Part shown: piece by piece, positions 18,354-51,902 of the stretch
How the letters are laid out: the number at the start of each line of letters is the position of its first letter
Numbering within the stretch: position 1 is the first letter of the stretch
Assembly: GCA_964016885.1 (NCBI GenBank)
Contig: OZ024743.1
Span: forward strand, 3,410,001-3,474,000
Origin: Eledone cirrhosa
Taxonomy: Eukaryota
Direction of reading: 5' to 3'
Length of the DNA: 64,000 nucleotides
Program-made: the position numbers and the translations under genes
The notes under the pieces: model-generated
The model's database searches: none
What the model saw: only the letters and a program-made list of their open reading frames with translations
Told to the model about the DNA's origin: nothing

Positions 18354-18536
18354 ATATGAAAAGATTCAGGACCCCAGCGGCTGAGCTCTGGTCGTTTTAA
18401 CAGCTAGATCCGATCTAGCTGTCGAAACGACCAGAGCTCAGTCGTCGGGGTCCTGAATCTTTTCATATTACCCACTCTACTACACCAAATATCGAGTACT
18501 CTGGTTCACCTAGGTTTTTTACCACACCCTATCTGA
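18354..18536 (+). mobile_element. Fold-back element, family P1
   Basis: Palindrome 18354-18468 with apex at 18411; tail cccactctactac..gagtactctggt shared with copies at 24914, 26421 and 37704. Confidence 0.8.
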
Positions 18537-18571
18537 TATATATTTTATATATATATATATATTATATATAT

Positions 18572-18900
18572 ATCATCATTCATCATCATCATCATTTCAT
18601 TTTACGTCCGCTTTTTCCCTGCTTGCAAAGGTGGGACGGGAACTGATTCTGGCTTGATTTCTACAGCTGGATGCCCTTCCTAACACCAACCTCATTTACA
18701 GTGAGTGCTGGGTGCTTTTTTGCCGTGGCACCTCCACGACCACTTTGCAGTGGAATGATATGGACCCCAGTCCTATCATCTCATTTCTACAGCTGATTAA
18801 ACTGGAGCAATGTGAAATAGTGAAACAACACATCACCTGGTCTGAGAATTGAACTCACAACCTTTCGATTGCAAGGCCAATGCTCTAACCACTAAGCCAT
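18572..18900 (-). mobile_element. CORE-type SINE B copy
   Basis: Near-identical to 4618-4940. Confidence 0.85.
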
Positions 18901-19016
18901 ATATATATATATATTATATTTATATATAAAATATATATTATATATATATATAATATATATATATATAATCTATATATATATATAATATAATATATATATA
19001 ATATAATATATATATA

Positions 19017-19210
19017 TGAAAAAGACAACCTTAACGGTTAGAGCTTCCTGGATATCCAGGAAGTTCCAACCGTTAAGTTGTTTTTTCACGGTATGTCAAT
19101 ATTTATTTATAAAACTAATCTGTATTGTATTTTATCTGCCTTGGTGGCCCTTGAAATATGTATAATAAAATAAATATGATTTTATAAATATAGTTTCCAT
19201 TTGTTAATAT
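19017..19210 (+). mobile_element. Fold-back element with a partly deleted HHR (family of 50590-50755)
   Basis: Palindrome 19017-19088; downstream gtattttatctg..cccttgaaatat..ataaaataaatatg matches 50647-50750. Confidence 0.7.
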
Positions 19211-19388
19211 ATATATATATATATATATATATAGAGAGAGAGAGATAAAATTACAATTCTATCTCTCGCCCTATTTACGTATGCACACTTACATTTATTC
19301 ATATATTTATATATATATAATATATATATATTATATATATATAATATATATTATATGTATATATTTATATATATAATATATATATATA

Positions 19389-19578
19389 ATTGTCTCTACT
19401 TTAGGCACAAGGCCAGCAAATTAACCAGTGCATTACTGGTACTTTATTTTATCGACCCCGTAAGGATGAAAGGCAAAGTCAACCTCGGCGGGATTGAACT
19501 CAGATCGTAAAGGGACGTAACTCTGCTGGGAAGCATGGCGTCCGACCCTCTACCGATACTGCCAATCCACCGCCGCCA
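19389..19578 (-). mobile_element. tRNA-derived SINE A, full-length head
   Basis: Begins ggcggcggtggattggcagtatcggtag. Confidence 0.85.
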
Positions 19579-19980
19579 TATATATAATGTTATTTCCTTT
19601 AATCCACGTTGCTCCTTCTACCTGGAGTTGCGACTCATAGATAGTATTAGCAACTGGAAAGACCGACCGACGAAAACATTGTTTCCTCGGTCCGATTTGA
19701 CGAAAGTCGATCTATATATATATATATATATATATTATATATATGTATATATATATATTATATATATGTATATATATATATTATATGTATTAAATATATA
19801 TATTATATATATGTATATATATATATATATATATATATAATATATATATATATACATATATGTATTATATATATATATATATATATATATTATATGTATT
19901 ATATATATATATTATATGTATTATATATATATATTATATGTATTATATATATATACAAACACACACACATTTATATATAA

Positions 19981-20100
19981 TGGAAGAGGAAGACCCGAGG
20001 TTAACATATGTTGATGTCCTAAGGACAGACACTGGTCTCTTGGAGACACAGGACATGTCAGCGATAATGAGTGACAGAGACCGCTGGAGAGAACTCGTAC
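19981..20100 (+). mobile_element. 3' fragment of a second RTE family
   Basis: [29 protein letters not shown]; matches 32790-32930. Confidence 0.85.
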
Positions 20101-20120
20101 ATATATATATTTATATATAT

Positions 20121-20520
20121 ATTGTTATATTTGGGGAGGGTCATATTGTTATAATATATATACACACACATACATATTAATTTATATCGTGAGTTAAAAA
20201 AAAGAGGGGGGGGGGGGCACACAATAAATAAGCCACTCAAAATATTAGTACAGTGAAAACAGTGAAAACATCAATATTTCATATAGAAAATTATATATAT
20301 ATAAAGTAAACAAATAACAAAGCAAACGACATAGTACACTCAAGAAACATTATGTTAACACTTGAACTAACAGAAACAGTGTCCTAATGTTTCGGACTCT
20401 AGTCCTTCATCAGAAGATTTAATTAGAAATAAAAGATAGAATAGAAAGATATAGAGTGAGAAGAGGAAGGAAGCAAAAATGAGAAAATCACATGTGCGTC
20501 TTCGGTTAGCCATTTTGGAT
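20121..20520 (-). mobile_element. PLE pLTR fragment with HHR-like motif at 20382-20418
   Basis: Terminal attgttatatttggggagggtcat shared with the PLE end at 10395; minus strand reads tctt CTGATGA a-ggact-ag-agtcc GAAA catt agga. Confidence 0.7.
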
Positions 20521-20561
20521 ATATATGTGTATGCGTGTGTGTATATATATATATACTTTTA

Positions 20562-49085: not shown

Positions 49086-49420
49086 TGTAGCGGTTGTCTC
49101 CCTTGTTGTGACCCCAATAGATTAACATCTAGACGGGAAGTAGAACCCTTTCTGTAACTTCCGGTCAGAGCGCTATAAAACGAATAGCCTTCGGCTCTCT
49201 CTCTCTCTCATTGGTCCTTCCGGCGCCTGGCTAAGGCCAGGCGTCTTCTGCCAGTCTGCGTTTGCCTGGCAATCATCTGCCAGCCTGCGTTTGCCTGGCA
49301 ATCAAATCGGTAACTACTAACTTTGCTTCATTCTTTCATCTATTTCTTTGACATGTCAACTATACTATCTACCATTGTTAATTAAATATTATCTACACAA
49401 ACAATGTATTCCTTGTTACA
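49086..49420 (+). mobile_element. Candidate solo LTR
   Basis: TGTAGC...GTTACA ends, TATAAAA and ATTAAA signals; no TSD seen. Confidence 0.45.
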
Positions 49421-50140
49421 TTCATACAACCCAGTACTCTCGCTATATATACATTTAAATACCATTAGTTAAGTACCATTAATTTTAGAGGATCCCGCTT
49501 AGCCAATATGGAAAGCCGGTAGTAATCTTAAGCATAAATGAATTTCAGTGTTTATGGAACTCAGTGCTGACAAATTTGTCGGATTACCTTTAGTATACAT
49601 ACATACATACATACATACATACATATGTACGTACATACGTACGTATGTATGTATGTACGTACGTATATGCATGTACGTATATATATATATATATATACAT
49701 ATATATATATATATATATATATATATATATATATATATATATATATATATATATATATATATATATATATACATATATATATATATATATACATATATAT
49801 ATATATATATATATATATATATATATATATATATATATATATATATATATATATATATATATATATATATATATATTTATATGTATATATATATATTTAT
49901 ATGTATTTATATGTATATATATATATATATATATATATATATATGTATATATATATATATATATATATATATATATATATATATATATATATATATATGT
50001 ATATATATATATTTATATGTACATATATTTATATATATAAATATATATATATATTTATATGTATATATATATATATATATATATATATATTTATATGTAT
50101 ATATATATAAATATATATAAATGTATATATATATATATAT

Positions 50141-50330
50141 AGTAATAATAATAAATTTGAAGACTAAAATCCAAAGAGGGCTCGATAAGGATAAATATAT
50201 ATCAAATATATAAGAACCGTAGAGCAAATATTTATTAAAATAGCAGATTAAAGTTTAAGCAAAGAATCGCTGCTTTCACCCTTAACGGGATCTTCTGAAA
50301 CTAACAAAGTCAATCTCTAAACGCAGAAGT
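50141..50330 (-). mobile_element. Family P2 copy without inversion
   Basis: Reverse complement of the P2 body, extending upstream of CAGAAGA. Confidence 0.8.
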
Positions 50331-50647
50331 GAATATTTCAAAAAACGTTGCAACCGGAGGAAGACAAGAAGACGATACTTTGGTTCGTGGAAACGTTCCC
50401 TGGCAAAGAACGGGAAAAAACGAATATAATACGTCATTATTTGGTGCGGTGAAAAACAATTACACGCAAAGACAGAACCACGTTTATTGTATAAAAGAAG
50501 TCGTAGACTAATATTCTCTAAGGTGGTTCATGGAGACGTTCTCTGGCAATGAACGAAAAAAACGAAGATAATACGTCATAATACGTCATTTTATCATCAG
50601 ATAAAATACTGTTCTTGAATATGTCACTATCTATAAAACAACTTTTG

Positions 50648-50710
50648 TATTTTATCTGATGAAAGCGTACCAAAAAATGTTGGTACCCTTGAAATATATA
50701 TAATAAAATA
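50648..50710 (+). ncRNA. Type I hammerhead
   Basis: tattttat CTGATGA aag-c-gtaccaa-aaaatg-ttggtac-c-ctt GAAA tatata TA ataaaata. Confidence 0.85.
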
Positions 50711-50788
50711 AATATGGTTTTATAAAGATAGTTTCCATTTATTAATATTATTGATATAAATATATATATATGTATAGCCTTACACACG

Positions 50789-50845
50789 CTGATGAACCAT
50801 GGGTTATTTCATTTCTGTCAGCAACTTATTGGCGAAACAGATTTC
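50789..50845 (+). ncRNA. Hammerhead-like motif, stem I not evident
   Basis: CTGATGA a-ccatgggtt...aacttattgg-c GAAA cag. Confidence 0.45.
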
Positions 50846-51154
50846 TTTGGATTTGTACGTGTGTTATATAGTTATAGAGGTATGTATTTACACTTTAATT
50901 TATATTTTTAATTATCGTGTGTCTACTCTGCCTTTCATGGGTTATAGATTCCATACACTGGTGGTTTTTTCCTGTTTTATTGATAGCGCACTATATCTCT
51001 CTCTAGTGTGTTACCTTTTCAACATATTGTATTTTAAAGAGCTCAGGATTCCTTCTCCTTTGAGCACATTATTTACAGGGAATAGCGAGAGTCTATGGCT
51101 CAGTTAATTTATCGTGATATAAATATATATATATATATATATATATATATATAT

Positions 51155-51314
51155 AATAGAAAACGAAAAATCAGTGATGTATCTGAACTCACAATAAATT
51201 GAGTTCAGATGCATCACTGATTTTTCGTTTTCTATTCTATCATACTCTGCTCTGTAAGAGCATAGCGTGCTCAACCGGCATAACGCCTATGGAAGCATCT
51301 TAGCTACCATCAGA
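51155..51314 (+). mobile_element. Fold-back element without a visible HHR core
   Basis: Palindrome 51155-51236 plus a one-sided tail. Confidence 0.7.
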
Positions 51315-51555
51315 CACATACACCACACACACACACACACAGACACACACACACACACACACACACACACACATACGCACACACACACAGAGACACATAC
51401 ACCACACACACACACACACAGAGACACACGCACACACAGACACATACACCACACACACAGACACACACACAGACACACACACACACACACACACACACAC
51501 ACACACACACACACACACACACACACACACACACACACACACATATATATATATA

Positions 51556-51902
51556 TAATTGGTTATGCACGAGTGCATTAATGTTTTCCAGGACACAGTG
51601 TTATGTACCGTGTAGTGGAATGTCAGCTTACAACAGAGTGGTGCTCAACGAAATGCAGAAAAAAGGTGTATATTCCAGTTTAGCTATATTCCGGGGCGTG
51701 TATAAGGAATTAAAAAGAACAGAAAGATGCAGTAAAAGAGATTTATTCGGTTCTTACGTACGTTTCAATAGACATCAATTTGCCTAGATCTCGCTACATC
51801 TAGATGTAGCGAGATCTAGGCAAATTGATGTCTATTGAAACGTACGTAAGAACCGAATAAATCTCTTTTACTGCATCTTTCTGTTCTTTTTAATTCTTTA
51901 TA
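51556..51902 (-). mobile_element. Fold-back element retaining the HHR 3' half
   Basis: Palindrome 51701-51902 with no spacer (centre 51801/51802); GAAA cgtacg TA agaac in both arms. Confidence 0.85.

Follow-up and report, generated by a model that had tools for sequence, protein, structure and literature searches.

Across a 64,000-nucleotide stretch of the Eledone cirrhosa genome (assembly GCA_964016885.1, contig OZ024743.1, positions 3,410,001 to 3,474,000; hereafter 'the window', numbered from its first base) lie short palindromes in which one arm carries an extra tail. Judged by their motifs, the two families P1 and P2 are the 3' ends, pseudo-long terminal repeat (pseudo-LTR) plus tail, of Hydra-clade Penelope-like elements (PLEs) in (TA)n targets. 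The structure of such insertions is known, as is the clade; the record of their junctions favours twin priming with cap run-off over the snap-back of a single cDNA. We propose, with a probability of about 0.75, that twin target-primed reverse transcription, begun at the two tail boundaries and mostly copying the 5' pseudo-LTR of the RNA, produces the insertions, with run-off at the cap and then end-joining. The features that we read from the sequence are the identity of the elements, two fixed arm starts against TA, largely independent arm ends, a common stop or 'wall', and an extra base beyond it.

Tailed palindromes as pieces of Penelope-like elements

An exact 33-nt pattern from the P2 tail matched the 3.0-Gb assembly at least 14,004 times and an exact 26-nt P1 pattern at least 40,211 times, with 0 matches for either reversed control. 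Long copies of both families (L066 and L087 for P2, L170 and L183 for P1) carry one open reading frame (ORF) in which, by motif inspection, a reverse transcriptase (RT) is followed by a GIY-YIG domain. A Pfam search with the Hydra-type ORF of L066 returned no match, and the look-alikes of the ORF in the Atlas are unnamed eukaryotic clusters, some with RVT_1. The Hydra-clade RT motifs RWR and DKT are present in the P2 N-terminus, and translations of both families show the CxCX5C linker, CxxC and CxH near the C-terminus and no CCHH cysteine pair inside GIY-YIG. In one copy (L055) the tail continues for ~45 nt as far as the ATG of the ORF, suggesting that pseudo-LTR and tail serve one unit as its 3' end and the following unit as a 5' leader. 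The tail matches of L055 and L056 are spaced 3,258 bp apart, a tandem arrangement with a unit of ~3.26 kb. TA tracts adjoin both boundaries of the tail, the near one (site A) and the far one (site B), in most copies and also in raw reads.

Fixed terminal inverted repeats in a fixed structure, as in miniature inverted-repeat transposable elements (MITEs), are not what we found: arm length and overlap vary continuously, the tail is one-sided, and the sequences originate from an RT element. The earlier note on this DNA had argued that the palindromes are not MITEs and had suggested Penelope-like insertion at a TA target. Both statements are borne out, the former by truncated pieces of an ORF-bearing RT element with variable arms and the latter by the ORF motifs and (TA)n flanks.

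Seven further families, P3-P9, are known by their anatomy, that is site A, a tail and, in P3, P4 and P5, hammerhead-like cores. P3 has the canonical hammerhead boxes, and its stem I is, by eye, altered on both sides between subfamilies. The predicted cores of P2 and P1 carry one core change and a degenerate first box, respectively, and these altered cores are conserved across thousands of copies. Within the window, cores with altered boxes lie at 25840-25885, at 50234-50300 and in the P1 arms. Rfam scans gave no hammerhead among the matches listed, only microRNA-like and small nucleolar RNA noise, and the P2 monomer folded no better than shuffled sequences, with two of three folded stretches off the intended motif. 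The P3 pattern is strand-skewed (1,566 forward versus 4,087 reverse matches), unlike those of P1 and P2, and a large tandem array of P3 may exist.

Two fixed arm starts, a common wall and an extra base

To describe the junctions we chose copies by their tail and not by their apex, taking most of the first 100 listed exact matches to each of the P1 and P2 patterns. All of these came from the start of one contig (C1), and copies in the same loci and in the window were added (~210 copies). Positions were counted back from the tail end on real copies, with arm ends called by BLAST and anchored alignment to within a few bases; anchored calling missed some divergent arms and was merged with other arm calls before counting.

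An inverted arm was present in 94/116 P1 copies (81%) and in 46/95 P2 copies. It begins at a fixed position, site A (-78 in P1, -88 in P2), directly against TA, and in the native sequence TAT follows both site A and site B. Among the 94 P1 copies, the two arms were symmetric within 10 nt in 60, the inverted arm reached more than 10 nt further upstream in 17 and was shorter in 6, and in 11 the arms did not overlap. The 46 P2 copies comprised 15 non-overlapping, 16 with a longer inverted arm, 9 symmetric and 6 with a shorter one; in the P2 copy L076 the inverted arm spans ~2.7 kb and its partner is the tail alone. Read by strand, the inverted arm corresponds to top-strand cDNA grown from the left target end and the sense piece to bottom-strand cDNA grown from the right end. 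The fixed internal start abutting the target and the class without overlap agree with L1-type twin priming, in which the second target strand primes an inverted segment inside the RNA. Among head-to-head pairs from loci not selected by tail, the tail stood on one side only in 31/35 P1 and 12/14 P3 rows (one P1 locus is listed twice), whereas random, independent choice of site would give a one-sided tail in at most half of the pairs. In two P2 copies (L068, L075) the inverted arm has its start within the tail, at a third site (-51) where an internal TA run lies.

The two arms end close to a single base, which we call the wall (-138 in P1, -162 in P2). Of 94 P1 inverted arms, 66 end between 6 nt upstream and 8 nt downstream of it and only 6 pass beyond, and the inverted arm stops in this zone even where the sense arm does not (P1 21/36, P2 6/26). 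The two arms tend to be bounded together or to read through together (P1, 3/2/0/53, Fisher p 3e-4; P2, 10/0/1/9, p 1e-4), as if both primers used the same pseudo-LTR copy of the RNA. The wall base is the A of an initiator-like word; a TATA-like box lies ~30 nt upstream in P3 and P1, and hammerhead stem I of P2 and P3 has its first base at the wall. In P1-P3 the wall sits at a YAG that follows a pyrimidine-rich tract. Together with the extra base described below, the initiator-like word and the TATA spacing suggest that the wall is the putative capped 5' end of the sense RNA. The predicted ribozyme of P2 and P3 would then start at the first base of the RNA, and its cleavage would remove the cap. 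We considered and rejected the idea that apexes mark stem II of the hammerhead or its cleavage site, as arm ends do not accumulate there.

Immediately beyond the wall many arms carry a base that the element does not encode. The counts were made by hand on the first 100 listed rows, in which both strands of one locus can appear. In P1 rows with C or T at this position, where the native base is A or G, C was found in 87/100 and T in 13/100 of the first 100 of 3,262 matches, none of them native; one base further, C fell to 14/100 against one third expected. For P2, 78 junction rows (22 native read-through rows dropped) had C in 54, T in 19 and G in 5; in P3, 65 rows had the native G and 31/35 of the remainder had C. 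Some run-off ends with an extra C are joined directly to target TA, and all three families include apexes at which both arms bear the extra base, 0-3 nt apart. At the commonest P1 apex bearing the cap-type base, the arm that was complete lacked the tail in 43 and bore it in 57 of 100 listed rows of 914, and at a P2 apex of this kind the numbers were 13 versus 15 (loci mostly selected for that apex). This near-equal share makes both arms look like first-strand cDNA.

The joints were also sought in raw Illumina restriction-site-associated DNA (RAD) reads, which are PCR-amplified, from three further runs under the same species label. For P2, 12/15 listed joints were opposite-strand, TA-bearing loose ends at site A occurred in 2,316-2,926 reads per run, and read depth halved across the wall. 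For P1, 13/14 listed joints were opposite-strand; 10 had one side no more than 6 nt from the wall, and in 6 of those 10 the partner side lay in the tail. The P1 depth step was left unused because a nearby RAD cut site confounds it, and two joints at cut positions may be ligation products. Opposite-strand joints in three raw-read runs show that the palindromes, as a class, are not an assembly artefact.

In the scheme that we favour, both strands of a (TA)n target would be cut; one target end would prime cDNA at site B, its counterpart would do so at site A, and the 3' ends of the two cDNAs would then be linked. Mostly, the pseudo-LTR and tail at the 5' end of the RNA would be used, so that synthesis of both cDNAs ends in run-off after 50-160 nt, with a C templated by the cap, while events on the downstream pseudo-LTR would give the long arms. 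The template of both cDNAs may be a single RNA, on which the B cDNA halts at the A cDNA or displaces it, or may be two RNAs of one source. Host end-joining through microhomologies of 1-6 nt, often including the cap base, would make some apexes recur. We consider it somewhat better than an even bet that PLEs insert in this two-ended manner by default, with both target strands primed at the tail boundaries and the 5' end of a capped sense RNA usually copied twice. If so, one scheme would explain why the insertions have a tail, an inverted pseudo-LTR and a palindrome at the junction and why animal genomes hold a flood of short stubs with hammerheads, and the transcription starts of such elements could be read from genomic DNA alone.

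Apex recurrence, rival explanations and known systems

The earlier note had called the apexes copy-specific, and this does not hold: they are strongly recurrent, with one P1 apex type found 914 times over several subfamilies, and the apex of the palindrome at 25768 is not private but found at dozens of unrelated loci. Nor are the supposedly copy-specific, mirrored variants private. The variant of the palindrome at 42855 was counted by hand in 89 listed palindromic loci, in both arms of 11 and in one arm of 78, and occurs with several different apexes; the form at 25768 is the common allele. What does stand is that the mirror half is made anew at each insertion, because the same apex occurs in different subfamilies and the same allele with different apexes. 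Apexes are therefore made anew yet cluster strongly. The comparison of arm-to-arm with copy-to-copy divergence that the note had proposed gave 5.3% between arms and 12.2% between copies (65 P1 palindromes). In the same palindromes common alleles were mirrored 170 times. The subfamily barcode was equal in both arms in 29/56 pairs against 5.9 expected. These data indicate that the arms share a template or source, which both snap-back and twin priming allow. Most barcodes agree, which weakens the idea of arms drawn often from different subfamilies; possible exceptions are the P1 copies L102, L111 and L197, whose arms may be of different subfamilies and would then mean two RNAs in one event.

Several observations weigh against twin priming with cap run-off. 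Symmetric junctions exceed the permutation expectation (P1, 42/88 versus 30.7, p 0.001; P2, 9/24 versus 4.5, p 0.003), so that the arm ends are not fully independent; annealing of two identical cDNA ends at self-complementary words predicts such an excess, and so does fold-back. A minority of rare variants are mirrored (3 private variants versus 23 unmirrored in the P1 palindromes; the 11/89 loci above), which fits rare source alleles and also snap-back or conversion. The partner arm could have templated some of the extra Cs (~21/87 in P1, ~19/54 in P2, ~14/31 in P3), and the apex of the P8 palindrome shows no cap base. Some P1 arms pass the wall A by 1-4 nt, and P2 has no TATA box upstream of the wall. 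The evidence for a start site is indirect throughout, consisting of the extra base, the initiator-like word and the TATA spacing, and our samples, drawn from the start of contig C1 by exact-match patterns, favour young copies.

We therefore weighed four other explanations. Snap-back self-priming, suggested by the earlier note, has one nascent cDNA fold at the apex and copy itself while the endonuclease resolves the far end at site A. It accommodates the excess of symmetric junctions, the 2-bp microhomologies with which the commonest apexes could close a loop of 1-3 nt, the greater likeness of arms than of copies and the mirrored minority of rare variants. A single cDNA cannot, however, yield non-overlapping arms (P1 11/94, P2 15/46), which refutes snap-back as the sole route, and snap-back of a tail-primed cDNA cannot yield an inverted arm longer than the sense arm (P1 17/94, P2 16/46). 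It also explains poorly an extra base on both arms with 0-1 nt between, or its near-equal share on the tail-less arm, and a cap-type base speaks for a sense template in place of the antisense template that the proposal of 2013 requires. The TA target of the earlier suggestion is upheld, but snap-back is not supported as the main route; we regard snap-back as unlikely, while fold-back may contribute to the symmetric class. Alternatively, priming could be twin as we propose, with the wall marking a splice junction, a site of RNA processing or a point where RT halts at stem I, and the C being added by terminal-transferase activity. Two points in its favour count against our own reading, namely the YAG after a pyrimidine-rich tract, which resembles a splice acceptor, and the intron of Drosophila virilis Penelope, described in PMC4209133 as ending at the 5' end of helix I; moreover, stem I of P2 and P3 opens with the wall base. 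Against it, the copy includes the AG itself, the extra C is followed by no constant exon sequence in 172 C rows (P1-P3), and this C is confined to one position. The P4 and P5 apexes lie ~50-85 nt upstream of the hammerhead core, long copies freely read through stem I, and TATA-like boxes stand at about -30. This explanation appears to us less probable still than snap-back.

The palindromes could also be mobile as ready-made, non-autonomous units of a MITE- or retrozyme-like kind with family-fixed apexes, as the sharing of some apexes by hundreds of copies might suggest. Yet the same apex occurs on several subfamily backgrounds with either central base, one allele occurs with several apexes, and there is a continuum of asymmetric forms, all of them pieces of ORF-bearing elements, which makes such units very improbable. 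We give least credence of all to chimeras of assembly or amplification: inverted repeats in TA-rich DNA are prone to artefacts and the RAD reads were amplified, but opposite-strand joints recur in three raw-read runs, the arms have diverged from each other and they start at fixed biological sites.

Much of this anatomy has precedents. For endonuclease-bearing (EN+) PLEs the inverted copy, the tail and the junction palindromes were already described in 2013, when self-priming on an antisense template was proposed and left open, so that a sense or an antisense template remained undecided (PMC3846280). A later account lists the formation of inverted PLE structures among its unresolved problems, and inverted, tailed insertion is an open problem there (PMC8557442). 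Our insertions resemble these units in the inverted arm adjacent to the 5' end, the junction palindrome, the one-sided tail and the AT-rich targets (PMC3846280; PMC8557442). They differ from those published in having tails of 40-140 nt and tens of thousands of copies, with junction statistics at hand; and the junctions point to two first-strand cDNAs on capped sense RNA and not to antisense self-priming (PMC3846280). With the Hydra clade they share a C-terminal GIY-YIG, RW(K/R), DKT, CxCX5C, CxxC/CxH, the lack of CCHH, (TA)n targets and a single ORF (PMC8557442). They are unlike it in unit length, ~3.26 kb against less than 3 kb, and the P1 and P2 hammerhead cores depart from the canonical box (PMC8557442).

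A Penelope protein assayed in vitro cuts the two target strands and extends each of them, with reverse transcription starting at the two boundaries of the tail (PMC11167929). This system, Poseidon PAc, is like ours in these respects and in having a hammerhead plus tail at the junction of pseudo-LTR and ORF (PMC11167929). In the portion of that paper available to us the two sites are not linked to opposite strands of one insertion or to cap run-off, and the PAc start site lacks homology to the target, whereas the P1 and P2 sites are both followed by TAT (PMC11167929). Our insertions also recall L1 twin priming, in which the second target strand primes inside the RNA, the joint shows microhomology and the cap is copied as an extra base, seen as an extra G from the mRNA cap in full-length L1 insertions (PMC11702581). 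Unlike in L1, the second site is fixed here and this outcome predominates (81% of tail-bearing P1 copies); a segment is copied twice where the arms overlap, and the cap can be reached by either arm or by both. An L1-type target-site duplication around the whole unit is unreadable inside (TA)n targets. Our literature search found neither twin priming nor cap run-off for these elements, although older Penelope papers outside its reach may suggest an analogy with twin priming. The parts consulted of a retrozyme preprint (10.64898/2026.07.22.740005) and of an octopus repeat annotation (PMC13282606) do not treat this question of insertion. In these junctions tens of thousands of events are naturally recorded, favouring a capped sense template and two primed strands, and the model that they suggest makes sharp predictions for the existing in vitro Penelope system (PMC11167929). 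Stubs of this kind should be annotated as retroelement insertion products and not as MITEs or microRNA hairpins.

Insertions in the window

A palindrome scan of the window recovered all 12 structures of the earlier note at its coordinates, with arms of 19-259 bp and mostly 0-7 mismatches between them. At 27838 the arms are gapped as well as mismatched, and at 19017 they align poorly at the chosen boundaries (27 identities, 24 gap columns). With TA-type repeats masked, every structure resolves into two arms, one inverted and one sense, and a tail on one side only, in most cases between TA tracts. They sort into at least seven families: P1 (18354, 24991, 26421, 37704), P2 (25768, 42855, 28919, 50141), P3 (37311), P4 (19017), P5 (27838), P6 (29130), P8 (51155) and P9 (51701). 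The apex positions reported before are correct for P1 (18411, 25051, 26440, 37766) and P2 (25841, 42920, none at 50141). What had been read as a deleted form of P2 at 28976 is a different structure: 28919-29072 is an inverted arm fused to a sense piece that begins at the tail, and the arms never overlapped. The insertions are as follows.

18354..18530, + strand: P1-related insertion with inverted arm, sense arm and tail; palindrome 18354-18468, apex 18411; tail end approximate.
19017..19204, + strand: P4 insertion with short inverted arm, apex near the putative start site, and tail; the 5' half of the hammerhead is deleted from the sense part.
24917..25112, - strand: P1 insertion; tail 24917-24990, palindrome 24991-25112; the tail-bearing arm extends to the putative start.
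25768..25999, + strand: P2 insertion; palindrome 25768-25914 and tail; sense arm from the putative +1 A (25839), the preceding G being common to the inverted arm.
26421..26550, + strand: P1 insertion with 19-bp arms and tail; the joint, at a short self-complementary word, lies well downstream of the start site.
27795..28208, - strand: P5 insertion; tail 27795-27837; a hammerhead-like core lies in the 185-bp arms, and the apex falls a few bases downstream of the putative family start site.
28919..29072, + strand: P2 non-overlapping insertion of two-primer type; site-A inverted arm joined to the tail, without a palindrome.
29130..30005, + strand: P6 insertion; identical 259-bp arms (29130-29388 and 29605-29863), rearranged 216-bp centre, tail.
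32625..32690, + strand: P3 stub, tail only, flanked by TA tracts.
37240..37416, - strand: P3 insertion; tail 37240-37310, palindrome 37311-37416 with a type I hammerhead motif of canonical core.
37704..37902, + strand: P1 insertion; both arms stop one base before the putative +1, with 5 inserted bases between; tail.
42855..43074, + strand: P2 insertion; identical 65-bp arms, a common recurrent apex with 1-nt centre, tail.
50141..50581, - strand: P2 tail-primed copy of 441 bp that reads past the putative start; native unfolded sequence.
51155..51313, + strand: P8 palindrome and tail; the apex G is native, so there is no cap base.
51560..51902, - strand: P9 insertion; 141-bp tail, 101-bp arms; relatives have site A and the tail in common and differ in their apexes.

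The G at the 51155 apex had been considered as a cap base and was dropped because a relative shows it to be native. The centre of the P6 palindrome (29389-29604) contains duplicated and inverted pieces, suggesting multiple template jumps during joining. An extra family absent from the earlier list, P7, lies at 35743-36165 with an inverted arm, a short overlap and a tail, and has relatives in 37 loci. At 50582-50758 the 5' end of the P2 copy runs, without TA, into a small inverted segment followed by the sense end of a P4 copy; this may be a nested insertion or a single event joining cDNAs of two families. Decayed ORFs of other PLEs lie at 55577-57133 (+ strand, RVT_1 match) and 10975-13179 (- strand). 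The segments 9669-10175, 14098-15229, 32790-33619 and 52548-54283 presumably represent a mariner-like transposase fragment and fragments of RTE-type long interspersed nuclear elements, going by their motifs.

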